A stretch of DNA of 49,536 nucleotides from Actinomycetota bacterium (lineage in GTDB: Bacteria; Planctomycetota; Phycisphaerae; JAACET01): NCBI GenBank assembly GCA_011682385.1, contig JAACET010000002.1, forward strand, positions 1 through 49,536. Reading direction: 5' to 3'. The notes under the pieces were generated by a model, which was not told the origin of the DNA, made no database searches, and worked only from the letters and a program-made list of their open reading frames with translations. The first letter of the stretch is position 1; every line of letters begins with the position of its first letter. Positions 7,275 through 44,038 of this stretch are shown here, piece by piece. The translations under genes and the position numbers were made by a program.

Positions 7275-7281
7275 AATTGTT

Positions 7282-14105: not shown

Positions 14106-14201
14106 GGATACGTAATGTCAAAGGATTTCGATAGAATCGAAGGGTTTGGTGAAGGCTACACCGCCTCCTCATCAACAGCATAAACAAAAAGGAGTCTTGA
14201 A

Positions 14202-16655: not shown

Positions 16656-16728
16656 GCGGCCAAAAGTCGGGCTAAAATAGGATCGGCTGTCAGGTCGGCG
16701 TTAGCCGTTAAAAACAAGGAGCAGTAGA

Positions 16729-19155: not shown

Positions 19156-19242
19156 GTGTGGCGACCTTGAAGTGCGAGAAACAGGCCGGAGCCTGAGATT
19201 AGTAATTACCACTGGAGTTTAGCAATAACAGGGAGCTGTGAA

Positions 19243-21698: not shown

Positions 21699-22841
21699 AT
21701 GAGATCCAAAGAACGAGTCCTCCGAATCTTCAGGGGAGAATCCGTAGACAGGCTAGCATGTTTCGAGCAGACGATAGCCTGCTCCGTGGCTTCGGACATT
21801 CTTGGCAGGCCGGCGCTAACCAGCGGCAGCTCGCTGGAGTATCACGAGGCCCGCGCCTGGTGGGAAGGTGAGGAAGCTCACGATGCCTTCAAGCTTCAGG
21901 TCCTCAAAGACAATCTTGAACTTTCCGAAGAACTCGGGTTTGACATGGTGCGTCCCAGATTATCGGTTTTAGAATCTAAGCCGAGCTGCCGTATCAATGA
22001 ATATACTTTCGGTTTTGGCAATTCCCAGCACGGTACATTTTTCACCATGAGTTTTGATCCAAATACTCAAATTTGGGGAATGGTCAAAAAACCAGTGCAA
22101 TGCTCTAACCCATATTCTGTTGTCCATCGTATGCAAAGAATTCTTGAACATCTGACTGACGAAACTACTGATTCGAATTTTTCAGCCTTGGATTGGCTGG
22201 TGGGCAAAGTTGGTGATCAAAAAGCTGTTCTTTGCTCAACCGGTGAAATATCGATTCCTATCGACCAGGAATGGCTAATCGCTTGTGCTGACGATCCCGG
22301 AATTGTGGAACGCTACTTGGATTGCATTGTTGAGATATCTCTGCGTAAGTTGCCGTTCGTCAAGAAACACGGGGCCGACGTAATATGGGCGGGGGGGCTA
22401 ATTGGTGGCAGCGATGGGCCGGTGTACAGCCCCGAGATATTCAAACATCTTCTTTTGCCTCGCTTGAAGAGGATCGTTACGAAGTGTCACGAACTAGGGC
22501 TATTCTACGTGTATCGTACCGACGGCAATATATGGTCCATCGCTGAGAAACTCCTGGGCGAGTCAGGCATAGACGGCTATGGAGTGAGCGATATCGACGC
22601 GGGCATGGACATCGGCGACGTCAGAAAACGTTTCCCAAAGCTGGTATTGTGTGGCAACGTCAACAATAAGACTCTCCAGCTCGGAACCGTTGAACAGGTC
22701 AAGGCGGAAACCAGGGCCTGCGTAGACAAGGCACTTGGAGGCGGGCACATCTTTGGCTCGTCTAATTCCATTATTCACGGAACGCCCGCTGACAACGTCA
22801 TAGCCATGTTCGAAACCGCCAGGGAATACGGAAGGTATTAA
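21699..22841 (+). CDS. Uroporphyrinogen decarboxylase (URO-D)-like family protein, cytoplasmic
   Basis: N-terminal MRSKERVLRIFRGESVDRL is typical of the family. The C-terminal end is LCGNVNN...GTVEQVKAETRACVDKALGGGHIFGSSNSIIHGTPADNVIAMFETAREYG. No signal peptide. Confidence 0.7.
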   Translation: MRSKERVLRIFRGESVDRLACFEQTIACSVASDILGRPALTSGSSLEYHEARAWWEGEEAHDAFKLQVLKDNLELSEELGFDMVRPRLSVLESKPSCRINEYTFGFGNSQHGTFFTMSFDPNTQIWGMVKKPVQCSNPYSVVHRMQRILEHLTDETTDSNFSALDWLVGKVGDQKAVLCSTGEISIPIDQEWLIACADDPGIVERYLDCIVEISLRKLPFVKKHGADVIWAGGLIGGSDGPVYSPEIFKHLLLPRLKRIVTKCHELGLFYVYRTDGNIWSIAEKLLGESGIDGYGVSDIDAGMDIGDVRKRFPKLVLCGNVNNKTLQLGTVEQVKAETRACVDKALGGGHIFGSSNSIIHGTPADNVIAMFETAREYGRY

Positions 22842-22844
22842 GCA

Positions 22845-24257
22845 ATGAGCAAAAGCAGCACACGGACACTCTTTGTAGATGACGCTGACACCGAAAGCAT
22901 GCGCAATTTACATCGCATTATTCACCCGGCCAAGAAGTATGAGGGAAATCCCGTTGTGGCCGCCGAACAGAAATGGGAGGGCAAAGAGTTACTGCTCGGC
23001 GGCACGGTCCGGAAGGAAGGCGAGATTCACCGTATGTGGTACCAAAGCAATCTCAACGGAACCTACCTGGACCTATATGCAGAAAGCAATGACGGCATTG
23101 GCTGGACCAAACCGTGTCTTGGCAAATATGAAGATTTTGAGGGAAGCCTTGAGAACAACATTTACATGAGCCGGATGGCCTTTCGGTCAGACAAGCGATC
23201 GCCGGCTTCTGTCAAGCAAGACCATAATCAGAATGTCCTTTATACTCCGCATATGGGCCAGGGCAAAACGTACACAATGCTGTCGTATGATTATGGGCGG
23301 TCAGGCTATGGGCCTTACGATGGATATTACCTTGCCTTTTCAGATGACGGTGTGAATTGGACTGACGGTCCCACAGAGCCGGTGATTCCCGGCTATGCCG
23401 ATGTGGGATGGTTTATATTCGACGAAAAAGACCAAGTATTCCGGGGCATAGTAAAATCCTTCATAAATATCCGAGGATACTCTCGACGATCCCTACTCTG
23501 GACCCAGAGCGCGGATGGCTTCAACTGGACCCTCCCTCGCCCGGCCTTCATACCCGACCTGGAAGACGATCGCTGGGCTGAAGGTCGAGCTGGCTGCTTT
23601 ACGCAATACTATGGGATGCCAATCGAACGCTATGAATCGGTCATCCTCGGATTTCTTCAGGTTTTCAGGTGTACCAACGGACACACATCTTCCGATGGTA
23701 CAATCGACGTGCAACTCACTGCCAGCCGAGACGGCAAAAACTGGCAACGTGTGGGCGATCGTCGCACCATTGTGGAGCGAGGTGAATATGGCAGCTGGGA
23801 CTGGGGGCTTATTGAACCGGGCAACGCTCTGGTCGTGGATGGCGACCAAGTTAGAATATATTATACTGGTTACAATTCCCTCCACGGCCAATGGACTCCG
23901 GATCCGCAGGGCAAGAAGCTTGCTATCGGAATGGCAAGCTGGCCGAGGGATCGTTTCGTTGGTATGAGGGCTGGTTCGAACGGCGGGGAACTAGTAGTTC
24001 GTTCAAATAACATCGGCGATGAATTACATATCAATGCAAATGCTGCCAACGGTTCCTTGGCCGTCGAACTTGCAGACCAGACTGGCAGGCCGATCAAAGG
24101 TTTTGAAGCATCAGAATGTAAGCTGCTTTGTCGCGACGGACTTGACCACACTGTAGCTTGGCAAAGTAAACCATCGACAAAACCATTCAAAGGCAAGTGT
24201 ATACAAATCAAACTGAAGCTCACCTCGGCTGAAGTCTTCTCGCTGTGGTGGACATAA
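22845..24257 (+). CDS. Cytoplasmic beta-propeller glycoside-hydrolase-like protein (GH43/GH32/DUF377 clan-like)
   Basis: No signal peptide. LFVDDADTESMRNLHRIIHPAKKYEGNPVV...WEGK...RMWYQS...SNDGIGWTKP, plus repeated DG.NW blades (SDDGVNWTDG, SADGFNWT, SRDGKNWQR). It shares this architecture with 33248..34639. Confidence 0.45.
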   Translation: MSKSSTRTLFVDDADTESMRNLHRIIHPAKKYEGNPVVAAEQKWEGKELLLGGTVRKEGEIHRMWYQSNLNGTYLDLYAESNDGIGWTKPCLGKYEDFEGSLENNIYMSRMAFRSDKRSPASVKQDHNQNVLYTPHMGQGKTYTMLSYDYGRSGYGPYDGYYLAFSDDGVNWTDGPTEPVIPGYADVGWFIFDEKDQVFRGIVKSFINIRGYSRRSLLWTQSADGFNWTLPRPAFIPDLEDDRWAEGRAGCFTQYYGMPIERYESVILGFLQVFRCTNGHTSSDGTIDVQLTASRDGKNWQRVGDRRTIVERGEYGSWDWGLIEPGNALVVDGDQVRIYYTGYNSLHGQWTPDPQGKKLAIGMASWPRDRFVGMRAGSNGGELVVRSNNIGDELHINANAANGSLAVELADQTGRPIKGFEASECKLLCRDGLDHTVAWQSKPSTKPFKGKCIQIKLKLTSAEVFSLWWT

Positions 24258-24269
24258 AAGGAATTGAAT

Positions 24270-25178
24270 ATGGTCGCAGAAAAAAACAAGCTGGGTGTTG
24301 GCGTTATTGTACCAGTCATAACGCCACTTGCGAGTGATGGAGATATCGATCAGCAAGGCCTTGAACGTGTGATCAGTCATTGCATGGCTGCCGGCGTGCA
24401 CGGAATACTCATCTTGGGCAGTGCAGGCGAGGGCATCTGCTTCCGGTCGAGGCAAAGGCAGAGAATTATCAATGCAGCAAAGCGCGTAACGGAAAATCAT
24501 ATTCCCCTATATGTCGGCGTGTTTGATGCAAGTACGAGCTTGGTGAGGGAAAAAATCAAATCTGCCGAAGGAAACGGCGCTGATGCCGTCGTGGTAACGC
24601 CCCACTACTATCTTCGATCACGCAACCAAGATGAGATTGTGCGGCATATGGAAATATGTGCTGCTAACGCCACCGTGCCGGTGTTGGCGTACAATAATGA
24701 GGGAACAGTGCACGTGAACATCGCAGCCCAGACCTTCAAAAAGATAATGGCAATAGAGAACGTGATAGGGCTCAAGGAAAGCACTCAGGATTGGAAGCAG
24801 TTTGAGTCAGAGCTTGCACTGCGGGGAAACACTGGTTTCAAAGTTATTGCGGGAGGGCAGTCCATTCTTGGGATGGCCATGCTGGCTGGGGCTGACGGCT
24901 GCATGTCCGGGGTAGCCAATTACGCGCCGAACCTCGTTGTTGAGTTATACGATGCGGCAAGAAAACAAGACGCTAAAAAGGTTTTGATGCTCCAGAGCAA
25001 AGTTATGAGGCTTGACGAGGCGACCCATGCCGGCGACTTCTTTCTGGCTGGCATCAAGTACGCTTGCTCGCTGCTTGGGCTGTGCCACGACTATTTGTCC
25101 GAGCCCTTTGAACGCCTTACGAACCCTCAGAAGGAAGTTGTTAGGATCGCCTTGCAGCAAGAAGGACTGATCAAGTGA
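24270..25178 (+). CDS. DHDPS/N-acetylneuraminate-lyase family class I aldolase
   Basis: AAAGGAA RBS, then ATG 24270 (the listed start 24264 is a TTG). Motifs are VPVITPL...GILILGSAGEG, VVTPHYY and the Schiff-base lysine context VIGLKEST. Confidence 0.8.
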   Translation: MVAEKNKLGVGVIVPVITPLASDGDIDQQGLERVISHCMAAGVHGILILGSAGEGICFRSRQRQRIINAAKRVTENHIPLYVGVFDASTSLVREKIKSAEGNGADAVVVTPHYYLRSRNQDEIVRHMEICAANATVPVLAYNNEGTVHVNIAAQTFKKIMAIENVIGLKESTQDWKQFESELALRGNTGFKVIAGGQSILGMAMLAGADGCMSGVANYAPNLVVELYDAARKQDAKKVLMLQSKVMRLDEATHAGDFFLAGIKYACSLLGLCHDYLSEPFERLTNPQKEVVRIALQQEGLIK

Positions 25179-25208
25179 GAGACCTGCATTTGTGAGCATA
25201 GGAACATC

Positions 25209-27548
25209 ATGAAAAAGCGTCATTCTGAGAGACGTGTCATTGTGAGACGATATGACCTGGTTGTCGTCGGCGGCGGCCTGGCGGGTGTCTGCGCAGCCAT
25301 TGCTACCGCTCGGCTCGGAGTCAAAACTGCGCTGATTCAGGATCGTCCTGTCTTGGGTGGAAATTCCTCTAGCGAAATCCGCGTAAACGTGGGAGGTGCC
25401 AATGACTGCAACGGCTGGGCCCGCGAGACCGGTATAATTGAAGAGCTAATTCTGGAAGACCGCTGCCGCAACCATGATCGCGTCCAAAACGGCGCTATCA
25501 ACTCCGTATGGGATATGGTCCTGTACGACTGGGTTACCAGAGAGCAAAACCTAGACCTCTATCTAGACACCCACGTGTCCTCCGTGGAAAAGAAGGCAGA
25601 TAAGATTGAGGCAGTTACGGGATTACAAACCGGCAGCGAACGAAACATCAGATTCCAATCGCCGCTGTTTGTGGACGCAACCGGAGACGGCACTGTAGGA
25701 GCATTAGCTGGGGCTCAGTTTCGTCACGGCCGGGAAAGTCGTGCGGAGTTTGACGAATCGCTGGCGCCCAAGAAGGCTGATGGGCAAACGCAAGGCTCTA
25801 CTCTTCTGTTCCGTGCCAGAGACACAGGTAAGCCAGCCCCATTCACGCCGCCAGACTGGGCTGAAAAATACCCGACAGAGAAGTCATTCTGCGGCAGGAA
25901 TCACGAAAAATTCGGGCCCAAGGAATATGCAGGTTACTGGTGGATCGAGGTGGGTTCGCCCTTCCACACCATAGAGCAGAACGATGAGATCCGCCACGAA
26001 ATCCTGCGACACGTTCTTGGCGTGTGGGATCACATAAAGAATCATGGAGATCACGACGCGGAAAACTTGGCCATTGACTGGATCGGAATGGTTCCCGGCA
26101 AACGTGAAAGCCGTAGACTCGTCGGCGACTACATATTAACACAGAACGATCTGCTACAGAACACACCTTTTCCTGACCGTGTCGCCTACGGAGGCTGGTT
26201 TATCGATCTGCACACCATAGGCGGCATACTGGAGAAGTCACATCCTCCTCTGCCGAAGGATCGCCACCCCATGGTCAGCGACGATGTAATCGTGAGGACA
26301 TACAACATCCCCCTTAGGTCATTGTATTCCAAAAATGTTTCGAACTTGTTCTTGGCTGGGCGGGATATCTCGGTGAGCAGCTGCGCGTTCGGCTCAACCC
26401 GCCTCATGCTGACCTGTGCCACGACGGGGCAAGCTGTCGGAACCGCCGCATACGTCGCCAAAAGGCACCGCTGCTCTTGCCGTGAAGTGGCGAACAAGTA
26501 CATCAAGGAAGTTCAGCAGCTTCTAGTAAAGAATGACGCCCTCGTCCTGGATATGCCCAACTCTGACCCAAAGGATCTCGCAAGATCCGCCAAGGTCACG
26601 GCCAGTTCAACTGCCCGGCTGAGATTGGAAATGCCGTCTGCTAAGAAAGCATCCAAAAGCGATGAAACCATACCTCCGTGGATCGGTGATCGGCGTTCCG
26701 TCTCGACAGACAGAATGGTCCTGGACACACCCAAGGGCCAGATTTTCCCCGTCTCTGCAGATCGGCTGAAAACGCTCTCGCTGTATGTGATATCGGAGTT
26801 CCAGAAAGACACAGAACTGACTGTAGAGCTTGCCAGTGTCAAGGACATATGGAGCTTCGTGGTCCCAACACGCACAAACAGCGTTCGGGCCAAGGCCACT
26901 ATACCAGCCTTCCATAGAGGCTGGGTGAAGTTCGACTTCAACATGAACATCGAGCCTGGCCTTTTCCAGTTATGCTTGCCTCGCAAAAAGGGACTGAGCG
27001 TGGCGTGCGCAGAGTCGTCCGTCCCCGGTGTATGCGCCGCGTGGAAACAGTCCAAGTGGACGCGATGGGACGGAGGATTGAAGGTAACCATCGCAATGCG
27101 ACTTGATCCGGTTTGTTATCCCTTCGAAGCAAACAACGTTATTAGCGGAACCGCCCGACCTGAACGCTGGACAAATCTGTGGATGAGCGACCCACAGAAA
27201 AACTTGCCCCAGTCGCTGACACTGCAATGGGGTGAGCCGAAAGAATTCGACACGGCGTATATAACCTTTGACACCTTCCTTCACTACGATCCGACTTATC
27301 TGCCTCCGTTCTGGAAGGCGAAGGAGTGCGTGAAGAATTACCGTCTGGAGGCAAGGGTAAATAAGAAATGGAAGCCTTTGGCCACAGTGAAAGATAACTA
27401 TCAGCGGCGCCGGGTGCATCGCTTCGCCAATGTTCGGGCGGATCGGCTCCGCCTGACCATATCAGCTACTAATGGCGATCCCTCCGCCCGAATTTACGAA
27501 ATGCGGGTTTACTGCGAGAAACGGATAACTATAAAGGACGGCTGCTAG
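25209..27548 (+). CDS. FAD-dependent oxidoreductase with C-terminal discoidin/galactose-binding-like domain
   Basis: Rossmann motif YDLVVVGGGLAGVCAAIATARLGVKTALIQDRPVLGGN. The C-terminus ...RADRLRLTISATNGDPSARIYEMRVY is typical of F5/8 type C domains. No signal peptide. Confidence 0.75.
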   Translation: MKKRHSERRVIVRRYDLVVVGGGLAGVCAAIATARLGVKTALIQDRPVLGGNSSSEIRVNVGGANDCNGWARETGIIEELILEDRCRNHDRVQNGAINSVWDMVLYDWVTREQNLDLYLDTHVSSVEKKADKIEAVTGLQTGSERNIRFQSPLFVDATGDGTVGALAGAQFRHGRESRAEFDESLAPKKADGQTQGSTLLFRARDTGKPAPFTPPDWAEKYPTEKSFCGRNHEKFGPKEYAGYWWIEVGSPFHTIEQNDEIRHEILRHVLGVWDHIKNHGDHDAENLAIDWIGMVPGKRESRRLVGDYILTQNDLLQNTPFPDRVAYGGWFIDLHTIGGILEKSHPPLPKDRHPMVSDDVIVRTYNIPLRSLYSKNVSNLFLAGRDISVSSCAFGSTRLMLTCATTGQAVGTAAYVAKRHRCSCREVANKYIKEVQQLLVKNDALVLDMPNSDPKDLARSAKVTASSTARLRLEMPSAKKASKSDETIPPWIGDRRSVSTDRMVLDTPKGQIFPVSADRLKTLSLYVISEFQKDTELTVELASVKDIWSFVVPTRTNSVRAKATIPAFHRGWVKFDFNMNIEPGLFQLCLPRKKGLSVACAESSVPGVCAAWKQSKWTRWDGGLKVTIAMRLDPVCYPFEANNVISGTARPERWTNLWMSDPQKNLPQSLTLQWGEPKEFDTAYITFDTFLHYDPTYLPPFWKAKECVKNYRLEARVNKKWKPLATVKDNYQRRRVHRFANVRADRLRLTISATNGDPSARIYEMRVYCEKRITIKDGC

Positions 27549-27587
27549 CGCGGCATAAAAACAGACGCCTAGCAATGAGGACTCTTA

Positions 27588-29117
27588 GTGCATAGAATAA
27601 CCAACCTTCCAGATGTTCGCATAGCTTTAGTTGGGGTCAGCCGTGATTGCTTCCCGACCGAATTAACTCGTTCACGCCTAGGGCAGCTTGCCAAGGAATG
27701 TCGAAAGAAGGGCCTGACGGTCGTCGTCGCTAAGAATATTATCGAGAATGAAAGTGATACAGTTTCTGTTCTCGGCGAATTGCGAGACAGAAGTGTAAAT
27801 GCAGCCGTCGTTTATCTGGGCAACTTTGGGCCAGAGGGACCGTTATCGGTATTTGCGAAGGAGTTTGATGGTCCGGTCATGGCTTGTGCAGCTGCTGAGG
27901 AAACCAGGGACTCACTTCTTAATAACCGTGGTGATGCTCTTTGTGGTTTGTTGAATGCTTCATATAACTTTGGTTTGCGTAACTCTCGTGTCTATATTCC
28001 GTCGATGCCTGTTGGTCAGGCAAATCATCTCGCTGAGTGCATAGCTAACTATGAAGCGGTGTCACGTATTGTACTTGGTATATCTGGACTGAAGATCATT
28101 TCATTCGGACCCAGACCGCATGATTTCTATGCCTGTAATGCACCAATTGGTCCATTGTATGACTTGGGTATAGAGGTCATGGAGAACTCTGAACTTGATC
28201 TGTTACAAATGTATCAGCGCCTAGATTGTGAAGATCCGGAAGTTAAGCGCATCGAGCTTGAAATGAAAAATGAGCTGGGCGGGGCCAATCCTTATCCCGA
28301 ACTTCTGCCAAAGCTTGCCAAGTTCGAATACAGCCTTCTGTGCTTTGCCGAAGAGAATCTGGGTTCTCGCGATTTTGCTGTTTTTGCTAATAAATGTTGG
28401 CCTGCATTTCAAAAAGCATTTGGGTTTATGCCTTGTTATGTTAATAGTCGGCTTGCCACTCAAGGGATGCCCGTTGCCTGCGAGGTGGACATTTATGGGG
28501 CGTTGAGTGAATATTTGTGCTGCTTAGCCACAAAGCTGCCCTCTACCTTACTGGATATCAATAATACTGTTCCTTCGGATCTAATTCCCGCCAACATAAA
28601 CCTGAAGGGAGCTGGGCAGGAAGATCTTTTCATGGGCTATCATTGTGGTAATACTCCTTCCTGCTGCATGAAGAATTTCAAGTTGACGTACCAGCAATGT
28701 CTTCATGGTTTGATTGAGGATCCCCACAGCGAACCAGACATCACTCGTGGCACACTAGAGGGACAACTATCACCGGGGCCGATAACGTTGTTTCGTGTTC
28801 AAGGGGACACTCAAGGCAACCTAGCAGCTTATGTCGCTCAAGGCGATATTCTTGATATAGACCCATGTAGCTATGGTAGTATTGGCGTAGTCTCTGTAGC
28901 GGACTTTGGCAGATTCTACCGCCATGTGTTAATCGCTAGGCACTTCCCCCATCATACCGCTGTTGGTTTTAAGCACTGCGGCGACACTCTTTTCGACGCG
29001 ATACGCTTAATAGGTATTGACAACATCATGACCCCTTTGCCTGTCAGGACAAGATATCCAGGAGAAAATCCGTTTGATCAGAACTGTTCTAATATCACGA
29101 AGAAACATCAAGAATAG
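27588..29117 (+). CDS. L-fucose/L-arabinose isomerase family-like protein
   Basis: 509 aa with a GTG start. The N-terminal VRIALVGVSRDCFP...VVYLGNFGPEG and the central GYHCGNTP resemble FucI-like isomerases. The assignment is from memory of the family pattern only. Confidence 0.5.
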   Translation: MHRITNLPDVRIALVGVSRDCFPTELTRSRLGQLAKECRKKGLTVVVAKNIIENESDTVSVLGELRDRSVNAAVVYLGNFGPEGPLSVFAKEFDGPVMACAAAEETRDSLLNNRGDALCGLLNASYNFGLRNSRVYIPSMPVGQANHLAECIANYEAVSRIVLGISGLKIISFGPRPHDFYACNAPIGPLYDLGIEVMENSELDLLQMYQRLDCEDPEVKRIELEMKNELGGANPYPELLPKLAKFEYSLLCFAEENLGSRDFAVFANKCWPAFQKAFGFMPCYVNSRLATQGMPVACEVDIYGALSEYLCCLATKLPSTLLDINNTVPSDLIPANINLKGAGQEDLFMGYHCGNTPSCCMKNFKLTYQQCLHGLIEDPHSEPDITRGTLEGQLSPGPITLFRVQGDTQGNLAAYVAQGDILDIDPCSYGSIGVVSVADFGRFYRHVLIARHFPHHTAVGFKHCGDTLFDAIRLIGIDNIMTPLPVRTRYPGENPFDQNCSNITKKHQE

Positions 29118-29128
29118 AGGTTCTTAGC

Positions 29129-29965: not shown

Positions 29966-29970
29966 AATAA

Positions 29971-30912: not shown

Positions 30913-31014
30913 GCGGTGTTCCAGATATATACCAGTCGGTTGAGAGTCTTAGCTGAACGAATGTCGTAGCAATAATAACAGATAGTCCGTACATCCAAAA
31001 GGATACCTTCGGCA

Positions 31015-32283: not shown

Positions 32284-32358
32284 GTTGACGATAGCGGATT
32301 GCGCCATGGCGCAGTGAGTGTACTAAGAGCAAGTGTATGCAAAAGAAAGGAAATTCAA

Positions 32359-33048: not shown

Positions 33049-33247
33049 TCACTCAGTGGAACCGCTTAGGTTAGCATCTGCCGAACCTCGGCCCTCAGCC
33101 ATTGCCCAAGCTAGATGACACAGAGAAATTCGCACACCATCTGGACCAAAGATGGGGAGCAGACCAAATGTTCTTGAGCCTTTTGGAAAAAGCGAAGAAT
33201 CTCGCCTGAGATCGCTTTGAAGCTCGATTCTACGGAGATATCTGGTT

Positions 33248-34639: not shown

Positions 34640-34684
34640 CGAGTGTTGCATTGTCCCAATGTTCAGAAACATCCGAGGTAAGCA

Positions 34685-35809: not shown

Positions 35810-35991
35810 AGTCCGGTACAACGAGAGAATTATAGCGGAAATAATCTGCCCCATTTCCTCTGCTGTTCTGGACCGGCCTCGCTTGCCTGGTTTGCGGGGT
35901 AATCTCTCGCCAACTGGCCGCAGGAAGGTTCGATGAGAAACGATGCCGATCAAGTGCTTGATCGCTGGTCCTGGGGCTTTACCCAGCTTGA

Positions 35992-36873: not shown

Positions 36874-36882
36874 CCCATGCCT

Positions 36883-37929
36883 TTAGTGCTGGTCAGGCAG
36901 CTTATGTTTTGATTGTCGGATACTTTTAATCAAGCCAACAGCGTTATCCCAGAAAACCCTGCGGATGTCCTTTGCCGGCAAACTCACCAGCCGAGCTGCC
37001 CGTGACATAGCCCGCAACTGCTCGTAGATAACGAAAGTGGGCTGCATGGCAAAAATCCCCTGACCCCACTGAAAGCCCGGTCGCCCAATCGGCAGCCAGA
37101 ATAATCCGCACTCGATATAACGTCCCCGAAAACCTGCAGCAAGTAAGTTGTCGCTGCCGAACATCAGTCGAGACAAATCGTAGTTCTTGAAAATCTCCAT
37201 AAATACCAGCGGATCGCACACTGCCGACGTTTCCACATACACATTAGGCAAAGTATTGAGCCGATCAACCACTTGCTCGAACATGCCGGGCCTGAAGCAG
37301 CGGGCACAATGGGCCAAAACCCACTTGGAATTTGAATATCGTTTCGACAACACCTCGAGGTCACGAATGTTGCCCGGATCGACGATGGCTTTACGCTTCG
37401 AAAGGTGTAGCATAACCATCAGACCCAGCTCGTCTACTACCTTGATGATTCTTTCAGGCAAAAAGCTGCGTATCGGCGCTTCGGTTTTGTTTTTGGCAGT
37501 TGCACGGGTCATGTAGACTTTTAGCCCGACGGCCCGTGTTTGTAATATTTGCTCTCGCACGAAAGTAGCCGACATCCTCGGATCGGCAAAGAAGAGTCTG
37601 GCATCACCCCTTTCGGCAAACTTTCGTACTTGTTGTGAGGTATATTGGTTGACTTGATCAGAAGTTTGGCTGTTTCCAAGCGGAACAGGTAAAAGCAGGT
37701 TGTTGCAGGTACGTTTCGGAAAAATCATCTTCTGAAACTGTTTCAACAATTCCAGCGAGACCTTTGGTGGTCCGTCTTTGATGGCAAGATTGACATGGGT
37801 GTGTATATCAAAGATTCGTTTTGGCAGAAACCAATCGATATCTTCTCGGAAGATTGCCAGATCAGTGGGCGTAAGGGACAGCCCTCCCGGTCCCCAGAAC
37901 TTGGCTTTGCTTAGAGATTTCTTGGCCAT
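36883..37929 (-). CDS. Amidohydrolase-superfamily metal hydrolase (amidohydrolase_2/lactonase-like)
   Basis: N-terminal metal motif IFDIHTHVN. Later HLSK and LAHCARCF histidines, and the C-terminal MFGSDN aspartate, are typical of the TIM-barrel amidohydrolase_2 family. Confidence 0.65.
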   Translation of the reverse strand: MAKKSLSKAKFWGPGGLSLTPTDLAIFREDIDWFLPKRIFDIHTHVNLAIKDGPPKVSLELLKQFQKMIFPKRTCNNLLLPVPLGNSQTSDQVNQYTSQQVRKFAERGDARLFFADPRMSATFVREQILQTRAVGLKVYMTRATAKNKTEAPIRSFLPERIIKVVDELGLMVMLHLSKRKAIVDPGNIRDLEVLSKRYSNSKWVLAHCARCFRPGMFEQVVDRLNTLPNVYVETSAVCDPLVFMEIFKNYDLSRLMFGSDNLLAAGFRGRYIECGLFWLPIGRPGFQWGQGIFAMQPTFVIYEQLRAMSRAARLVSLPAKDIRRVFWDNAVGLIKSIRQSKHKLPDQH

Positions 37930-38086
37930 ACATTTATATCCTGGATTCCCAAAATAAATACCCGTAGACCTCCGACTGTTCTTTTCGACTCTATCACCTT
38001 ACAGCAAGATTACCATGGCAGTCCAAAACCAGATTAGCCATGTCTCATACAGTTATTACCACACAGGATATATTGGCTTAAAAGAA

Positions 38087-39271
38087 CTAGCCCGGAACAA
38101 TTTCGACGGGATTACCTGTGTCACAGGACTCCCTGGCCGCCAGCCCCAGTTGAACGCTTAAACGACCATCCGACCAACTACTCCTGGGTTGCTCGCCAGT
38201 CCGGCAACAGTGAAAAAAGTGAGCAATGATATTACTGTCGGCCCCGCCGTGGTCTCCGCAGATCCGCTCGCGAACGTCGTGGACAATTTTCTCCTTGCTG
38301 TGCCGCCGCCACATGGTCACCGTACCTTGTTCCATATCGCCTTCGGCTGAGCCTTCTGTGCCCGTAAGACGCATTTGCCGTGTGTCTCTGGCACTGACAA
38401 CCGTCAGGGTGTGAGTTGCACGGACATCATTGTCATATTCGACGAGGGCCATGCCGTTATCGAAAGTATCTTTGTCTGAAGTGTAAAGACAGAGGTCTCG
38501 CGGCTGCCCCGTGGCCTTTTCGGTCAGGGTGGCGAGAGCATCCAACTGCGGATCGGTGGGCGATTCAAGATCGTAGTAGTCTGGGCAAGTGCGTTTCAGG
38601 GAACATATCCGGCAATGTGTAGCCGATCCAGGGATCGGGGCGTAATGACTTAAGCTTGATACTGCAAAGACTCGCTTCAGATTTCCCCCGGCAAACCAAT
38701 TTATCAGGTCAAAGTCGTGACAGGTCTTGGTTATCCATAGGCCTCCACCGTATTTTCTCAGACGGTTCCAGCGCCGAAAATAAGTCCTGCCGCCGTAGTA
38801 GTACTCGTTTGTTTCAATGGTCAACAATCTCCCGAATTGGCCGCTTTTGAGCATCTCATGAAGGGTCTCATGTACGGGCCCATGTCGCAGATTCATGCCC
38901 AGATAAAAGACACGATCTGTTTTCTTGGCTGCACTGATGATCTCATCACAATCGGATAGAGTGATCGCCAAAGGCTTTTCGCAGTAGACGTGCTTGCCAG
39001 CTTTGAGCGAGGCAACGACCGGTGTGACGTGCTCGGAGTCCGGCGTACAGACCAGCACCGCGCCAACACGCTCATCGCTAACAGCCTGCTCCAAGGACTC
39101 GTAGGTCACTGCGTCAGGAAGATCGTACTGCTTCAGCAGATACTCAACACGTGCGGGTATCGTATCATATATACCAGTTACAAAGCCCTGACTGGGATGA
39201 GCCTTCAAGTAATCAAGAAACGAAATGCAGCGCATGCCTGCGCCCACGATTGCTACACCCATACTATTCAT
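38087..39271 (-). CDS. Gfo/Idh/MocA-family NAD(P)-dependent oxidoreductase
   Basis: Rossmann motif MGVAIVGAGMRC and the hallmark VYCEKPLA (EKP motif), followed by the C-terminal alpha/beta dimerisation-domain pattern. Confidence 0.85.
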   Translation of the reverse strand: MNSMGVAIVGAGMRCISFLDYLKAHPSQGFVTGIYDTIPARVEYLLKQYDLPDAVTYESLEQAVSDERVGAVLVCTPDSEHVTPVVASLKAGKHVYCEKPLAITLSDCDEIISAAKKTDRVFYLGMNLRHGPVHETLHEMLKSGQFGRLLTIETNEYYYGGRTYFRRWNRLRKYGGGLWITKTCHDFDLINWFAGGNLKRVFAVSSLSHYAPIPGSATHCRICSLKRTCPDYYDLESPTDPQLDALATLTEKATGQPRDLCLYTSDKDTFDNGMALVEYDNDVRATHTLTVVSARDTRQMRLTGTEGSAEGDMEQGTVTMWRRHSKEKIVHDVRERICGDHGGADSNIIAHFFHCCRTGEQPRSSWSDGRLSVQLGLAARESCDTGNPVEIVPG

Positions 39272-39322
39272 TTTGTCAACCGAGCCTTTCTATAAGAACA
39301 TTCAATGTTGTTCTGCACTTGC

Positions 39323-40402
39323 TTAAAATCTCAGTTCTCTGATTCTGTTCAGATAGTATTTGTAATTCGCCAGCGAGGTATCTGGGGTTATCAAGTGATC
39401 CGGCATAACCACGAATCCGCCCTCTTTCATCAGAGGTAGCCGGCGTTCAATCTCGACATCGATTGCTTCAGGGCCTTTTTCCAGTACCAGTTTGTTAAAG
39501 CCACCTATTATTCTCAATTCTTTGCCGTATTTTTTCCGTAACGCCATTGGATCAGCATTCCAGGTGCCGATTTCCACAGGGCACTGAACGTTTACGCCGG
39601 CATCCAGCCAGTCGGACAGCAATGGCTCAATGAAACCATCGCAATCAACAGCCAGCAGTTTGGTGCCGTACTCCTCCAGTTTATTCCTTATTTTCCTATA
39701 GCCGGGCGCAACATGTTTCTTGAAAATCGCTGGGCTCACTAAAGGCCCTGATTTTCCACAGATGTCTTCCCATCCGAATCCCATATCGAGTTTCGTTCTC
39801 ATCTTTGGTGCAACTTGGTCGATGTACCAGCAAACCAGATATGAAAGGGTGCTCATCATGTCGGAATAGACTTCCGGGTCGTCGTACATCAGGTATGACA
39901 TGTTTTCCACCCCCATCCAATCTCTGATCCATCCCATCATGGAACCAGTGTGTAAGGCAAGGGGTAGTCCTGAGTTCTGGGCACGTTCGATTCTTTCAGC
40001 CAGATCAGGCGGAATTCTTTCCGGGCAGGGCTGTAGCCTTTTCTTAAATTCAGACCAATCATTTCCTGTTTTCAGTGTAAAATCGATGCAATGAGGGGGG
40101 CTGCTCTTATGTTTCCATTCCTTCTTAGTAACGCCGCATTCGTCTTTGTAAATGCGGTATTCCTTGGTGTCTTCGAGAACTTCTTCTTCAAACGGCGGAT
40201 AAAGGTGAACCGCTTTGTCACTGCCGGATATCCACGCGCAGTGCGGCGTAGCCTGAAAGTACGTATGATCGTCGACATTTTCAGGCATGCCTTCCGATAT
40301 CCATCTGGCACGTGTTTCGTCCCATCCGCCCCAGTGAATCACGGGCATTCTGTCAAAGTCACCGTAATTCATAATGGTCTGCCACAACTGTCTGATTGAC
40401 AT
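39323..40402 (-). CDS. URO-D-like family protein (D-C-D-G in place of H-x-C-G)
   Basis: GAGGA RBS 9 nt upstream of the start. MSIRQLWQTIMNYGDFDRMPVIHWGGW...MYDDPEVY...LLAVDCDGFIEPLLSDWLDAGVNVQCPVE...MKEGGFVVMPDHLITPDTSLANYKYY. Confidence 0.7.
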   Translation of the reverse strand: MSIRQLWQTIMNYGDFDRMPVIHWGGWDETRARWISEGMPENVDDHTYFQATPHCAWISGSDKAVHLYPPFEEEVLEDTKEYRIYKDECGVTKKEWKHKSSPPHCIDFTLKTGNDWSEFKKRLQPCPERIPPDLAERIERAQNSGLPLALHTGSMMGWIRDWMGVENMSYLMYDDPEVYSDMMSTLSYLVCWYIDQVAPKMRTKLDMGFGWEDICGKSGPLVSPAIFKKHVAPGYRKIRNKLEEYGTKLLAVDCDGFIEPLLSDWLDAGVNVQCPVEIGTWNADPMALRKKYGKELRIIGGFNKLVLEKGPEAIDVEIERRLPLMKEGGFVVMPDHLITPDTSLANYKYYLNRIRELRF

Positions 40403-40423
40403 ATTAAAGAATCCTCATGAAAA
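40280..40423. repeat. 144-bp direct repeat, copy A (5' end plus RBS region of the 39323..40402 gene)
   Basis: Matches 42848-42991 with 5 mismatches and no gaps (139/144). The two copies are offset by 2568 bp. Confidence 0.95.
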
Positions 40424-40531
40424 ATCGAACAGTGCCATTAAGTCCGAGAACCTTTGTGTCAGGTCCATAATGAAAACGACAGGCAGAGGGACGACCGGAA
40501 TCATCAGGGAAGGTCCTCAGCCTATTACCCG

Positions 40532-41515
40532 CTACGCCGTACTCAGCAATTGCCCATTTTTCATAATAACCTTCTCGTCAACAGTTACAGTTGCCTCTCG
40601 GCAGATCAAATCGATATGTACAGGCCCAGCATTCTGTCCGCCAATTGTGGTATTGGCCCCAAATCCTATGTGGGCAGTTCCAAACACGCCTTCGTCCTCC
40701 AGCATTCGCCCGCAAAGTTTGGCAGCCGGATTAAGGCCTATACCCAACTCGGCCGCGATACGAACCGAAGAATCACCGTAGCTATCCCAGATCTTACATA
40801 ACATGTCGGCTTGTTCTCCACCTCGCACTTTTACTGCCCGCCCCCGCCTGACTTCGACGGTTATGGGCTTTTTTAGCAAACCTATTTGCGGCACTGGTAT
40901 ACTTCCGTCTACAATCAACAAACCTTCTGTCAAGTGTTCAACTGGCGCAAAATTAGCTTCAATGTCCGGCGGGGAACCAAAATCACCCGGTTTCGTACAA
41001 TAAGCTGACGCTGCATTTGCATCTCTGCCTTCAGCGGACAAGGTTATATCTGTCCCGAGCTTCGTAGTTAGCCTCACAGTTTGACCGCTTTCGAAGAAAT
41101 TAGCTACCCGCTGCACAATCGGCACCATAGCAGCGTAGTCAGCCATGGTTCCACCGCCACGCAGCATATTGAGATCATAGTCAGCCAGACTCAGGAATCT
41201 CCCGCCTTTCTTACAGAAGTTTACGCGCAGCAGGGAGTGCGAGAGTGAAAAAGTCGTACAGGCAAGGACAACATCTGCCGCAAGCGATTTTTCAGCAATG
41301 CTTGCCGGGGGTTCCTGGCCATGCCCTTTGGCCAGGGGAACGATTATCAAGTCAGTCTCGTCTGTGGCCACCGAAACGGCGTCAAGAAAGTGCCTTGCGA
41401 TCGATTTAGATTTCGAATCCGCTAGAATCGTGACTCTTTCTCCTGGCTGAATCACAGCGGCATTCTGAATAATGGCTCTGGCGCCGGGCAGCAATTCTGC
41501 TGGATTGTTTACCAT
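40532..41515 (-). CDS. Peptidase M29 (aminopeptidase T/AmpS)-like protein
   Basis: N-terminal ...GARAIIQNAAVIQPGERVTILAD. C-terminal GVFGTAHIGFGANTTIGGQNAGPVHIDLI resembles the M29 metal-site region. It starts 3 nt after the upstream gene's stop. Confidence 0.55.
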   Translation of the reverse strand: MVNNPAELLPGARAIIQNAAVIQPGERVTILADSKSKSIARHFLDAVSVATDETDLIIVPLAKGHGQEPPASIAEKSLAADVVLACTTFSLSHSLLRVNFCKKGGRFLSLADYDLNMLRGGGTMADYAAMVPIVQRVANFFESGQTVRLTTKLGTDITLSAEGRDANAASAYCTKPGDFGSPPDIEANFAPVEHLTEGLLIVDGSIPVPQIGLLKKPITVEVRRGRAVKVRGGEQADMLCKIWDSYGDSSVRIAAELGIGLNPAAKLCGRMLEDEGVFGTAHIGFGANTTIGGQNAGPVHIDLICREATVTVDEKVIMKNGQLLSTA

Positions 41516-41518
41516 ACT

Positions 41519-42797
41519 TTATCTCTTGCTATTAATTTCTTGGCTCAGTTTGTTGGTCAGCTTCAAGAATGTGTCCACTTCTTCAACCGTATTGTAGTGC
41601 GCAAGAGATACTCGCACACACTGGTCGAGTCTCATAGCCTCAAGCGTGTGCCGCGTATAGGCATCACTTTGACGGTCATGCACGATGATTCCTGCAGAAA
41701 TGCATCGTTTTACAACCTGCTTAGCCGGCAGACCTTCCAGGTTCATAGCAAATACTGCTTCTCGGTTATTGGTGACCATCGGGTATCCGTAGATATCTAC
41801 ACCTTTGATTTGCAGCAGCCCGGGTTGTTCAGAGCTACCGTTGAGAAGTCTGTCAGTGAGAGTCATTTCATGCGACTCAATCGCCTTCATAGCCGCGACA
41901 ATTAGGTCGCGCCTGCTTTTCCACCTGATTGCCCAACCAGCATAGATAATCGATTGCTGCTGAAAACGCTGCATAACCGCTGGCATCACGTGTGCCAAGG
42001 TCCCAACTGTCAACAGGCTTGCCTCGCAAACGCCAGTGTAGCAGCTCAGCTATCTTGGGACCCGTATACGCAAAAGTCAGGCCGACTTTGGAGAACAGCT
42101 TGTAGGCCGCGACAAGGTAGGCGTCCACGCCTAAGTCATTAACATCTATTGGGCAATGTTGAGCATGCTGGGCACCATCTACCACAATGAAAGTATTGCG
42201 ACGTTTCTTTCGAATCTCGCGGACTATTTTTTGAGCGTCATTCTTGACACCCGTGACGTTAGAAGCGTGGATAAATCCGACTGCCATTGTGCCTTCATCT
42301 ACCAACGCAGTTATGGACTCGTAAGGAACGGCCCCAGTTGCTGGGTCGAGTCTAGCTACTCTCATCTCAAGCCCAGACTTCTCCGCAAAAAACCTTGTGG
42401 CATCGAAAAATGAAGCGTGGTCAAGATTAGTACAAACAATATTAGTTCCCTTGCAGCTAGATGTGCAGGCATCAAGAATACGAAAAATGTTCGAGGTTGT
42501 GCTTTCCCCAGCTAATATTGTTCCTTCCTTGGCATTCAAGAAAGTTTTTACATCTTCCACACCTTTTCTGAGAATCTCACCGATCTGTTGAGACGCTTTG
42601 TTTTGTCTGCCGGCATTATCCGGCAATCCCGCAACCTCGGGAAGCAGACTAAGAACGGACTTCAGCGTTAGACTTCCGCCGGCGTTTTCAAAATAAATAC
42701 GTTTTCCGCTGTATGGATCTTCATCTACATACGCAAAGCGATTCCGTATCTGATTCAGTAAGTAATCTTCAAATGGTTTGCCTTTTGCCGGTGCCAT
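41519..42797 (-). pseudogene. Class V aminotransferase/cysteine-desulfurase-fold PLP enzyme, interrupted by a frameshift
   Basis: ORF 41877..42797 carries HASNVTG, VVDGAQHAQHCPIDVNDLGVDAYLVAAYK and AAIDYLCWLG. The expected continuation (RRDLIVAAMKAIESHEMTLTDRLL...VRVSLAHYNTVEEVD) lies in another frame, in ORF 41519..42013. The switch is between about 41910 and 41938, at or near an A4 run (minus strand, 41917-41920). Confidence 0.75.
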
Positions 42798-42814
42798 AAA
42801 CTTACTCCGTAGGG

Positions 42815-42970
42815 CTAAACTCCAAAATACTCATACTCGTCGGCATCTTCAGGCATGCCTTCTGATATCCATCTGGTACGTGTTTCGTCCCATCCGGCCC
42901 AGTGAATCACGGGCATTCTGTCAAAGTCACCGTAATCCATAATGTTCTGCCACAACTGTCTGATTGACAT
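42815..42970 (-). pseudogene. 51-codon remnant of a URO-D-like gene (duplicate of the 5' end of 39323..40402)
   Basis: It translates to MSIRQLWQNIMDYGDFDRMPVIHWAGWDETRTRWISEGMPEDADEYEYFGV*. It keeps the same GAGGA RBS. The stop lies 18 nt upstream of the aminotransferase ATG. It is too short for the ORF track. Confidence 0.8.
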
Positions 42971-42991
42971 ATTAAAGAATCCTCATGAAAA
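42848..42991. repeat. 144-bp direct repeat, copy B
   Basis: 139/144 identical to 40280-40423 in the same orientation. Confidence 0.95.
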
Positions 42992-43039
42992 GATTGGCCG
43001 GCGGCATCTGGCCCCGGAACTCTTGAGTCATATCCGTTC

Positions 43040-44038
43040 CTACCGAGGGGATACTTCAATAACTGCTTCTAACAGTGCTGCTGCATTTTCGGTGGGAACA
43101 TCTTCCATCAATGCCTTGGCTGTATCCATAATGTAGCCGCCGCCCTTGCCCAGCACAGATGCGCAGTCCATGACCTGTTGGCGAACTTCTTTGGGCTGTC
43201 CGCGGGAAAGCACTCCCTGCACACCAATACCTCCATGGAAACAAATACTGCCACCGTAAAGCTGCTTCATTTTGCGGATCTCCATAGCTTCAGGCTGTAG
43301 AGGATTGAACACTTGCACCCCGATATCGATCAAATCCGGCATGATTTCCTCGTTGTCGCCGCAACTGTGAATAGCAAGAATCTTTCCGGATTCTCGAACT
43401 TTTGCGTATATTTGTGCCAGGCGAGGCTTAAGGAACCGTCGCCAGTATTTTTTCCCCATGATCAAGCCCTTCTGTTGTCCGAAATCATCACCAAAACGCA
43501 GACAATCGAAAGGCAGGTGAAGTATCTTGTCGAGAGCATCCAATTGCAGTTGCATCAGAGTCTCTAGCAATGCGTCCACAAATACGGGATGCTGTACCAT
43601 ATCTACCATCAAGTCTTCAAAGCCTCGCATGGCCCAGGCCCGTTCAAAAAAGAGCATCCCAAGTTCATAACAGGTAAATCTGTCTTTGTTTCCTTCACAA
43701 AATTTCTCGATCCTGGTAATCTCCGCATCATCAATTAGTTCCGGCCAATGCACGCCCTTGAGATCAGGTTTTTTCAACACCGGCTCTACGGGATGTGCGG
43801 CCTTGCCTTTTTGCCAGAGAACACCAAACGGGTCGCGAAATACTTGGTCGGGATCGTCTTCATGCCATTTCATCCACTCGATATGAACAAAATGATTTTC
43901 ATAGCTCGGCCATCTGTCTGGCCCGCCATAATAACTGTTCAGCCGTTCAGTTACCGACTGTTCCATACTGATGTTATAAGGAATAAAGTCGGTCTCCCGG
44001 AATTTCAGCGATTCATAAACACGTTCTCTTGGCGTCAT
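43040..44038 (-). CDS. URO-D-like family protein (H-S-C-G motif present)
   Basis: AGGAA RBS. MTPRERVYESLKFRETDFIPYN...ILAIHSCGDNEEIMPDLIDIGVQVFNPLQ...HGGIGVQGVLSRGQPKEVRQQVMDCASVLGKGGGYIMDTAKAL. Confidence 0.7.
   Translation of the reverse strand: MTPRERVYESLKFRETDFIPYNISMEQSVTERLNSYYGGPDRWPSYENHFVHIEWMKWHEDDPDQVFRDPFGVLWQKGKAAHPVEPVLKKPDLKGVHWPELIDDAEITRIEKFCEGNKDRFTCYELGMLFFERAWAMRGFEDLMVDMVQHPVFVDALLETLMQLQLDALDKILHLPFDCLRFGDDFGQQKGLIMGKKYWRRFLKPRLAQIYAKVRESGKILAIHSCGDNEEIMPDLIDIGVQVFNPLQPEAMEIRKMKQLYGGSICFHGGIGVQGVLSRGQPKEVRQQVMDCASVLGKGGGYIMDTAKALMEDVPTENAAALLEAVIEVSPR

Follow-up and report, generated by a model that had tools for sequence, protein, structure and literature searches.

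The question raised by this locus is what four proteins of the uroporphyrinogen decarboxylase (URO-D) fold may be doing inside an island of sugar-catabolic genes. The island lies on contig JAACET010000002.1 of assembly GCA_011682385.1, of which the whole stretch of 49,536 nucleotides (49.5 kb, hereafter the window) was analysed. A preliminary description, made from the letters of the window, had placed four URO-D-like open reading frames (ORFs), here designated U1 to U4, at the positions listed below. All four exceeded the gathering score of the Pfam URO-D family (PF01208, 23.9 bits), which bears out their assignment.

U1, 21699-22841, + strand: 380 aa, Pfam URO-D 80.2 bits
U2, 31015-32283, + strand: 422 aa, Pfam URO-D 67.1 bits
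U3, 39323-40402, - strand: 359 aa, Pfam URO-D 45.6 bits
U4, 43040-44038, - strand: 332 aa, Pfam URO-D 64.3 bits

The answer proposed here centres on U2. This protein is most likely a substrate-specific methyltransferase (MTI-like) of a corrinoid-dependent methyl-transfer system, which makes it a candidate oxygen-independent sugar O-demethylase; the fuller statement, that U2 is a corrinoid-dependent methyltransferase with a sugar substrate, has in our estimate about an even chance of being right. The U2 family is put forward as a candidate sugar demethylase because it is repeatedly tied to both sugar porters and corrinoid machinery. U2 would apparently represent a corrinoid-methyltransferase-type system recruited to sugars, accompanied by sister subfamilies, and U1, U3, and U4 are best treated as related sugar-island enzymes. 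The functions suggested for the four proteins are drawn from their sequences, predicted structures, and gene neighbourhoods.

The match of U1 to U4 to the Pfam URO-D profile is confined to its C-terminal half (approximately positions 157-346). Despite this half-profile match, AlphaFold2 models built from the family alignments of U2 (pLDDT 92.6) and U3 (pLDDT 94.7) adopt the URO-D/MtaA fold along their entire length. The U2 model matched MtaA (4AY7) best in the Protein Data Bank (PDB), followed by URODs and then MetE, and it carries an extra beta-rich insertion of approximately 120 residues after the first strand; the best matches of the U3 model were URODs and MtaA, with a TM-score of approximately 0.65. 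MetE structures were distant fold matches to the models (E 1e-5 to 1e-3, TM-score below 0.5), and neither a match to the MetE families of Pfam and NCBIfam nor the His-x-Cys...Glu...Cys site of MetE was found in U1 to U4. When single sequences were searched against the PDB, U1 alone gave matches, which were weak and to UROD; the alignments to PDB proteins described below were made with family profiles, and with a pan-family profile in the case of U2. The N-termini of all four proteins read as hydrophilic, without any stretch resembling a signal peptide.

Pairwise identity among U1 to U4 is only 20-27%, and each has closer orthologues in other phyla, so a recent tandem duplication was rejected as their origin. 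They are four anciently diverged members of the URO-D/MtaA/MetE TIM-barrel superfamily, each representing a distinct subfamily that is widely conserved among uncultured bacteria of the Planctomycetota/Armatimonadota/Omnitrophota type. Clustering of such paralogs is not unique to the window, since two or more URO-D-like ORFs lie within approximately 10 kb of each other in 17 of 89 comparison loci; the window is nevertheless the richest case seen, with four different URO-D-like subfamilies in 22 kb. The view of U1 to U4 as one functional set has to be given up in favour of four old subfamilies whose conserved active-site residues differ, and the four proteins probably do not share one function.

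A first explanation to be weighed is that U1 to U4 are genuine uroporphyrinogen decarboxylases (HemE), or enzymes of haem or corrin maturation, placed by chance in a sugar island. The Pfam URO-D matches speak for it, as do the URODs among the top structural matches of U3 and the name 'uroporphyrinogen decarboxylase' carried by many database records. The resemblance to HemE extends to the histidine of the HemE motif 'LGHG', which aligns with His336 of U3 and His397 of U2. HemE possesses, near its N-terminus, a substrate-binding arginine motif of the PxWxMRQAGR type. This RQAGR-type motif is absent from the four proteins, whose N-termini read ...VDRLACFEQ, ...PDRVCVDLG, ...FDRMPVIHW, and ...TDFIPYNIS. 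The HemE profile TIGR01464 scored 15.2 bits on U2, 17.8 bits on U3, and 18.5 bits on U4 (U1 was not listed) against a cutoff of 302.95 bits, and the Pfam match is confined to the C-terminal half of its profile. Moreover, four paralogs share one island, and a Pfam scan of every sizeable ORF detected no haem or corrin biosynthesis gene in the window. The suspicion that these proteins are something other than genuine HemE was therefore well founded, and the HemE explanation deserves almost no credence.

Nor do the four proteins belong to the established methyltransferases of this fold. The MtaA/CmuA profile TIGR01463 (cutoff 235.4 bits) gave 51.3 bits for U1, 49.2 bits for U2, 18.6 bits for U3, and 53.2 bits for U4, in each case over the C-terminal half only, and none of the four displays a His-x-Cys...Cys zinc triad of the MtaA/CmuA kind. 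Thus, none of U1 to U4 is HemE or a canonical MtaA/CmuA protein.

The active-site residues set the four proteins apart. The motifs KHSCGS of U2, IHSCGD of U4, VDCDGF of U3, and YRTDGN of U1 share one alignment column, so the reading of H-S-C-G twice, D-C-D-G once, and R-T-D-G once at an equivalent position was correct. The divergence of a metal-site-like motif that the preliminary description had noticed there gains a structural counterpart, because the column coincides with the His-x-Cys zinc ligands of MtaA: in the profile alignment, H-S-C of U2 and U4 falls on 'LHICGN' of 4AY7, which supplies the His and Cys ligands. The third ligand of MtaA, the Cys of 'PGCG', aligns with the 'LGHG' histidine of HemE, and profile alignments place His397 of U2, His336 of U3, Lys308 of U4, and Asn356 of U1 at this position. 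The three positions thus read His/Cys/His in U2, His/Cys/Lys in U4, Asp/Asp/His in U3, and Arg/Asp/Asn in U1.

These patterns are conserved within each family. In the U2 family, H310 and C312 are each retained in 84 of 85 sequences and H397 in 84 of 84. The U4 family has invariant H224, G227, and D228, along with invariant FGDD and QPE motifs, and nearly invariant S225, C226, and K308. D253, D255, and H336 are invariant in the U3 family, in which W-E-D-I and P-D-H336 motifs are present, and the U1 family keeps D275, G276, S355, and N356 invariant, S-N standing at the third-ligand position. The Cys of 'DCDG' in U3 was considered as a metal ligand and rejected, its position varying between C, S, and T in the family. 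Other URO-D-like paralogs encoded in the fetched loci show His-Cys-Cys, His-Cys-Asn, His-Asp-His/Asn/Thr, or Asp-Asp-His, and the metal-free MTI CdmB has Ser, Gln, and Phe at the three positions according to the profile alignment. S-methyltransferases of the UroD superfamily have been described as His-Cys-Cys proteins, with one or both cysteines replaced by carboxylates or non-ligands in O-methyltransferases (PMC10418091). The ligand spectrum of the URO-D-like paralogs fits this generalisation.

An indication of the role of U2 comes from the genomic neighbourhood of its homologues, which number at least 8000 (63-78% identity), occur in Planctomycetota, Armatimonadota, and further phyla of glycan degraders that are mostly uncultured, and in some cases bear the NCBI name 'methyltransferase'. 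Eighty metagenome loci around U2 homologues (L090-L169) were fetched, their neighbouring genes were scanned with Pfam and clustered, and hidden Markov models (HMMs) were built from the clusters. Among 112 adjoining genes, Pfam identified MFS_1 and Sugar_tr (11 and 10), URO-D (4), B12-binding and B12-binding_2 (4 each), and RACo (2). A corrinoid protein is encoded in 10 of the 80 loci, and in 7 of these it lies on the same strand and within 190 nt of the U2 homologue; RACo and DUF1638 each occur in 8 loci, bringing those with any corrinoid machinery (the union with the corrinoid protein) to 15. Twenty of the 80 loci have a sugar porter, in 19 cases no more than 282 nt away from the U2 homologue.

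Representatives of these neighbours were examined one by one. The corrinoid protein combines B12-binding_2 and B12-binding domains and resembles TIGR02370/MtgC/MtbC (TIGR02370-like, 205 bits), and the RACo activase contains Fer2, Raco_middle, and RACo_C_ter domains. The porter belongs to the sugar-porter family of the major facilitator superfamily, passing the TIGR00879 cutoff of 238 bits with a score of 360. It is most like XylE, on which it scores 441 bits, whereas the model for aromatic-acid/H+ symporters gives no more than 132 bits against a cutoff of 419. The same HMMs found no match in 90 other sources totalling 1.34 Mb, namely 80 loci centred on U3 homologues, nine look-up loci of the U2, U3, and U4 families, and the window itself. 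Fisher tests of the 80 U2 loci against 0 of 89 gave p = 4e-4 for the corrinoid protein, 6e-6 for any machinery, and 8e-8 for the porter. Among the 21 fully flanked U2 loci, machinery is present in 8, a porter in 7, either in 14, and both in 1. Corrinoid-linked and porter-linked members are interspersed in a rough neighbour-joining tree of the family, in which the corrinoid-linked member of L105 falls in the clade of the window's U2, and the invariant residues are identical in both kinds of member. The window's own U2 lies within a tight co-directional array of sugar-catabolic genes, which supports a role in sugar metabolism.

The corrinoid cassettes contain further proteins of interest. Six of them (L125, L152, L160, L162, L168, and L156) encode a full-length MtaA/CmuA-like protein with an H-I-C...G-C site (144-169 bits), and non-U2, non-canonical paralogs lie within the cassettes of L105 (7278-8435, H-S-C...N) and L156 (5452-6258, H-D-D...H). 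At positions 5959-11700 of L118, a U2 homologue, an XylE-like porter, an AraC regulator, a corrinoid protein, and an MtaB homologue (PF12176, 540 bits) follow one another in this order, so that a methyltransferase of the methanol type stands among sugar genes in a bacterium. A homocysteine S-methyltransferase domain protein (PF02574) is encoded inside the U2 corrinoid cassette of L160 (995-1861), and another near a U4-family gene in L002 (5348-6256); methionine is a possible methyl sink in these two cases. U2-family genes also occur as tandem duplicates or triplicates (L149 1454-5414, L161 3344-6010, and L162 4460-7266), which by analogy with the O-demethylase MTIs of acetogens suggests an ongoing expansion of paralogs.

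Such cassettes can be read in two ways as regards the part played by U2. It could be an enzyme of the second type (MTII-like) that transfers the methyl group from CH3-Co(III) to tetrahydrofolate or a different acceptor, in which case no sugar would be demethylated and the sugar surroundings would be incidental or regulatory. In L118, the U2 homologue is the only URO-D-fold protein near the MtaC-like corrinoid protein and the MtaB homologue, an MtaABC-like arrangement that suits this alternative, as do the homocysteine S-methyltransferase domain protein in the L160 cassette and the NCBI practice of calling some U2 members simply 'methyltransferase'. However, a canonical His-Cys-Cys MtaA/CmuA-like protein is already available in cassettes, a generic MTII would be unexpected both in the 19 two-gene modules with an XylE-like porter and in a glycan-catabolic operon such as that of the window, and the beta-rich insertion of U2 recalls the substrate-channel extensions of the MTI CdmB. 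An MTII role for U2 is, on this evidence, decidedly improbable. U2 is the natural candidate for the MTI because the cassettes already hold their canonical His-Cys-Cys unloading partner and because it combines the beta-rich insertion and an O-type ligand set with the two-gene modules that pair it with a sugar porter.

As a corrinoid-dependent sugar methyltransferase, U2 would hold a metal, probably zinc, through His310, Cys312, and His397. The metal would bind and polarise the ether oxygen of an O-methyl sugar, acting as a Lewis acid in the way that zinc acts on methanol in MtaB; the sugar itself would be imported or freed locally by the glycosidases of the island. The methyl group would pass to Co(I) on a separate corrinoid protein, from which an MTII, the second methyltransferase of the system, would deliver it to tetrahydrofolate, homocysteine, or a thiol; oxidised cobalt would be repaired by a RACo-type activase. 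The corrinoid protein, the second methyltransferase, and the activase of this genome would be encoded outside the 49.5-kb window. The analysis shows the fold, the division into subfamilies, the equivalence of the motifs, and the genomic associations; for U2, we infer the identity of the metal, the methyl-sugar substrate, the direction of transfer, and the trans-acting partners.

Several observations weigh against this assignment. A Pfam scan of the window revealed no corrinoid protein, RACo, second methyltransferase, cobamide gene, or sugar transporter, and our own HMMs for the corrinoid protein, RACo, DUF1638, and the sugar porter likewise found nothing there. At the family level, 65 of the 80 loci lack corrinoid machinery within 6 kb, and porter and corrinoid loci are nearly mutually exclusive, with both present only in L118 and L126. 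Furthermore, the corrinoid protein of L118 is followed by the MtaB homologue and may serve methanol rather than U2. The 49 bits scored by U2 on the MtaA/CmuA profile are far below the family cutoff of 235, its family profile matched no sequence in the PDB, and the clustering of H310, C312, and H397 is deduced from homology with MtaA. Sequence does not suffice to assign MTI and MTII roles within the cassettes. Chemically, an aliphatic alkoxide is a poor leaving group, and to our knowledge an O-methyl-sugar:corrinoid methyltransferase has never been characterised.

The preliminary description had proposed sugar O-demethylation as a candidate role for these proteins and had taken the lack of a corrinoid protein in the window to weaken it. 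That lack is confirmed, and it weighs less than was thought because the U2 family repeatedly adjoins corrinoid machinery in other genomes. The proposed role itself is strengthened for U2, whose relatives elsewhere have corrinoid proteins, RACo, MtaA-like proteins, and porters as neighbours; U3 and U4 showed no corrinoid link.

The U3 family comprises 917 homologues, with 54-68% identity to U3 in the loci of 80 GTDB species, nearly all of them metagenome-assembled genomes. They come from Armatimonadota, Planctomycetota, Omnitrophota, Hydrogenedentota, Kiritimatiellae, Lentisphaerae, Poribacteria, Verrucomicrobiota, and Chloroflexota. The 120 genes adjoining U3 homologues fall into 149 Pfam families without a single B12 domain, the commonest being GFO/IDH/MocA (4), URO-D (4), and GDSL lipase (3). 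GFO/IDH/MocA was the sole family to recur around U3 (17 of the 80 GTDB loci); it is not treated as a specific link, such genes being too abundant in these genomes. A BcrAD_BadFG kinase and SIS_2 pair noted behind U3 homologues in L003 and L004 was discarded as a family trait, not being general among the 120 neighbours.

The U4 family is larger, with 1552 homologues (best identity 61%) whose names include Poribacteria, Planctomycetes, Armatimonadota, and WS1. Its contexts recurrently contain GFO/IDH/MocA, aldo-keto reductases, a second URO-D paralog, and giant CBM9+GH123_cat proteins. Outside the window, no gene type adjoins members of the U3 and U4 families more often than GFO/IDH/MocA. Giant CBM9+GH123_cat proteins lie within 10 kb of U4-family genes on two unrelated contigs (L001 18504-21008 and L179 14430-17014), and together with the window these cases hint at a recurrent association of URO-D-like and GH123-like genes. 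The pairing of U3 and U4 in the window (39323-44038) has a parallel in L172, where approximately 4 kb separate a U4-family gene from a U3-like paralog that scores 213 bits with the U3 profile (4791-5921 and 10001-11050).

With the HMMs described above, no corrinoid protein, RACo, DUF1638, or porter was detected in the 80 U3-centred loci and the nine look-up loci; for the corrinoid protein, RACo, and DUF1638, the search also came out empty in another 13 loci of the U4 family. The idea of a corrinoid methyltransferase is therefore not sustained for U3 and U4, which lack the link in approximately 100 loci. This absence of corrinoid neighbours argues against a U2-type mechanism for the two families, although they may have trans-acting corrinoid partners.

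The U1 family is rarer and more divergent, with 96 representatives at E<=1e-30, of which the best is 57% identical to U1 and the next approximately 40%. Among 26 copies compared, that of the window is the only one with Leu at the near-invariant D234 (GGDL changed to GGLI) and the only one with Val at the near-invariant E296 (YGEID changed to YGVSD). These substitutions suggest that U1 of the window may be inactive, repurposed, or neofunctionalised despite its intact ORF.

The neighbourhoods of the U3 and U4 families bear on the proposal that all four proteins are corrinoid-dependent methyltransferases, each for a different O-methyl sugar, which would share a corrinoid protein, an MTII, and an activase encoded elsewhere, as the MTI paralogs of acetogens do. 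The run of ligands from His-Cys-Cys through His-Cys-His/Asn/Lys and His-Asp-His to Asp-Asp-His matches the published rule for O-methyltransferases (PMC10418091), non-canonical paralogs do occur in the corrinoid cassettes of L105 and L156, some characterised MTIs such as CdmB are metal-independent, and URO-D-like paralogs are often clustered. Yet corrinoid machinery is present in 15 of 80 U2 loci and in none of the 80 U3 loci, the nine others, and the 13 U4 loci; the many Pfam families around U3 include no B12 domain; and the window's U1 has lost two near-invariant acidic residues. We regard this extension to all four proteins as unlikely, if not negligibly so.

The opposite proposal denies a methyltransferase role to all four: as metal-dependent TIM barrels they would carry out other reactions on sugars, for instance isomerisation, hydrolysis, or the decarboxylation of a sugar acid (which the preliminary description had also suggested), and the corrinoid neighbours of U2 would reflect a different sub-function. 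It draws strength from the U3 and U4 families, whose main links are to GFO/IDH/MocA, aldo-keto reductases, and GH123/CBM9 proteins, from the invariant residues of U3, among which the carboxylates, a histidine, and numerous tryptophans are of the kind usual in sugar-binding sites, and from a fold that supports decarboxylation in HemE. For U2 it encounters a corrinoid protein directly adjoining the gene on the same strand in 7 independent loci, and invariant residues that do not differ between corrinoid-linked and porter-linked members; in addition, HemE chemistry needs a pyrrole substrate, for which sugars offer no obvious analogue. This proposal seems to us rather more doubtful still. A combined view, in which the U2 family (at least 8000 clusters at 90% identity) would constitute an oxygen-independent sugar O-demethylase, zinc-dependent and of the UroD fold, that hands the methyl group of imported O-methylated monosaccharides to a corrinoid protein, and U1, U3, U4, and the H-S-D types would form a wider sugar-chemistry radiation with retuned metal sites, is offered tentatively, as a possibility less likely than not to be right.

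Compared with known systems, U2 is closest in structure to MtaA/MtbA (4AY7; TIGR01463), with which the four proteins share the URO-D TIM barrel. The H-x-C of U2 and U4 falls on its zinc ligands, the third position can be aligned in all of U1 to U4, and corrinoid proteins and RACo activases are neighbours of the U2 family. Where MtaA has Cys as its third ligand, the proteins of the window have His, Lys, or Asn; the profile scores are 18-53 bits against 235, the beta-rich region of approximately 120 residues is an addition in U2, there is no coenzyme M context, and the bacteria are non-methanogenic. In system architecture, the closest characterised relatives are the MTIs of O-demethylases and dehalogenases. 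These are UroD-fold barrels with insertions after the first strands, and they cooperate with a corrinoid protein, an ATP-dependent activase, and an MTII (PMC13222342). Like these enzymes (OdmB, VdmB, MtvB, and CdmB; PDB 9RUI), U2 has the UroD fold, its homologues lie in cassettes with the same parts, and metal sites among the MTIs are variable or absent. Unlike them, U2 is set among XylE-like porters and glycan-catabolic genes in Planctomycetota/Armatimonadota-type bacteria, whereas the known MTIs, from acetogens and Desulfitobacterium, act on methyl halides or methoxylated aromatics. The profile match to CdmB 9RUI is marginal (E 4e-5, C-terminal part only), and the MTI-type partner genes are found at the level of the U2 family, in 15 of 80 loci, and not in the window.

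The type 1 mlp clusters of MtaA-like proteins (Mlps), described by Kountz and Balskus, offer another precedent, outside methanogens, for several UroD-superfamily paralogs combined with a corrinoid protein and an activase, and their substrate class is read from the zinc ligands by the same logic as that applied here (PMC10418091). The Mlps are invariably His-Cys-Cys, are more than 25% identical to SCMTs, and come from obligate anaerobes, mostly Firmicutes, in which they are assigned to methyl-sulfur or methyl-selenium metabolism with Ram/RACE activation (PMC10418091). U1 to U4 differ from them in their substituted ligands and sugar context.

The possible significance of such an activity lies in the methyl sugars of natural glycans. 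These include 6-O-methylgalactose of porphyran, 2-O-methylfucose and 2-O-methylxylose of rhamnogalacturonan II, 4-O-methylglucuronate of xylan, and the 3-O-methyl sugars of algal and microbial glycans. Their methyl ethers block glycoside hydrolases and central sugar pathways. In the literature searched, carbohydrate demethylation was described only for a cytochrome P450, which acts on 6-O-methyl-D-galactose in the porphyran pathway and is encoded within polysaccharide-utilisation loci (PMC6292453); no link between corrinoids and methyl sugars was found, and no role in glycan catabolism had been assigned to the URO-D fold, as the preliminary description had supposed. The P450 enzyme is the functional analogue that we propose for U2, in that it strips the O-methyl group from a sugar so that catabolism can proceed. 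It is unrelated in fold and carries out an O2-dependent oxidation with release of formaldehyde, whereas the U2 system would rely on nucleophilic methyl transfer to Co(I), would conserve the methyl group, and would not need oxygen.

For sugar demethylation by anoxic or microoxic glycan degraders, the U2 family therefore provides a concrete and testable candidate. If the proposal holds, corrinoid-dependent O-demethylation would extend from aromatic to aliphatic sugar ethers, sugar catabolism would be unblocked while the methyl group fed one-carbon metabolism or methionine, and polysaccharide degradation would be tied to cobamide demand and one-carbon metabolism in abundant uncultured phyla. Thousands of 'uroporphyrinogen decarboxylase' annotations would also be corrected. 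Should these families do something else, they would still rank among the larger conserved unknowns, and the ligand spectrum would serve as a useful handle for sorting them.

The island around the four genes consists of two convergent arrays. A Pfam scan of all sizeable ORFs confirmed that U1 to U4 are interleaved with sugar-acting enzymes and not with haem or corrinoid genes. The first array runs co-directionally on the + strand (10774-35809), with most gaps between 3 and 45 nt, and holds U1 and U2. U1 starts 44 nt past a GH123-like gene and is followed by the next ORF after 3 nt; the genes at 22845-30912 are separated by 3-39 nt, and U2 lies between the split transketolase (gap of 102 nt) and the DeoC aldolase (gap of 15 nt).

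10774-21654, + strand: a CBM9 protein, then four tandem GH123-like genes (Pfam CBM9_1, Glyco_hydro_123_N_2, GH123_N, GH123_cat)
22845-30912, + strand: a 470-aa ORF, a DHDPS-family aldolase, a 779-aa FAD oxidoreductase, a fucose-isomerase-like protein, and a split transketolase (Pfam, NCBIfam)
32299-35809, + strand: a DeoC-family aldolase, a 463-aa ORF, and a BNR/sialidase-like protein (Pfam)

The second array, on the - strand (44038-35992), contains U4, a 51-codon stub, an aminotransferase, a 327-aa ORF, U3, and three genes downstream of U3. LacI and ROK regulators flank the island.

42815-42970, - strand: the 51-codon stub, which aligns to the N-terminus of U3 and has no Pfam hit
40532-42797, - strand: a 2.4-kb segment bracketed by a direct repeat, with the 327-aa ORF and a frameshifted class-V aminotransferase
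35992-39271, - strand: a GFO/IDH/MocA oxidoreductase, an Amidohydro_2 protein, and a xylose-isomerase-like TIM barrel (Pfam), downstream of U3
44920-46137, + strand: a ROK regulator or kinase with a winged helix (ROK 190 bits, HTH_24), divergent from the U4 operon

The stub had been taken for the remnant of a fifth URO-D-like gene. It is a real ORF, and its origin can be stated more specifically: the 5' end of U3 has been duplicated, a direct repeat of 168 nt (42824-42991 against 40256-40423, 93% identical) copying the ribosome-binding region and approximately the first 45 codons of U3. As far as its sequence indicates, the stub is probably a non-functional, dead duplication product. Because the repeat of the U3 5' end brackets the 2.4-kb segment, the stub seems to be less a gene than a scar left by duplication or insertion. 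Repeat and bracketed segment together suggest an insertion or duplication by recombination through the 5' end of U3. Within the segment, Aminotran_5 is matched on two overlapping ORFs in different frames (41877-42797, profile positions 1-236, and 41519-42013, profile positions 272-371); this split of the aminotransferase (41519-42797, - strand) is a frameshift, due to pseudogenisation or assembly error. The 327-aa ORF gave no significant match to Pfam or NCBIfam, and its identification as a BcrAD_BadFG kinase was rejected because the similarity is absent.

Two minor observations concern the margins of the window. Upstream of the + strand array, the ORFs at 7222-8178 and 8349-9845 (+ strand) have no family match and end in weak PEP-CTERM-like C-termini; they are followed by a DUF1559/N-terminal-methylation protein (9769-10716, + strand), a set typical of PVC/Armatimonadota-type genomes. 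Beyond the ROK gene, a zinc-type alcohol dehydrogenase is split by a second apparent frameshift of the window into ADH_N (47512-47994) and ADH_zinc_N (47984-48679) parts on the + strand, directly after an intact paralog (46322-47485).

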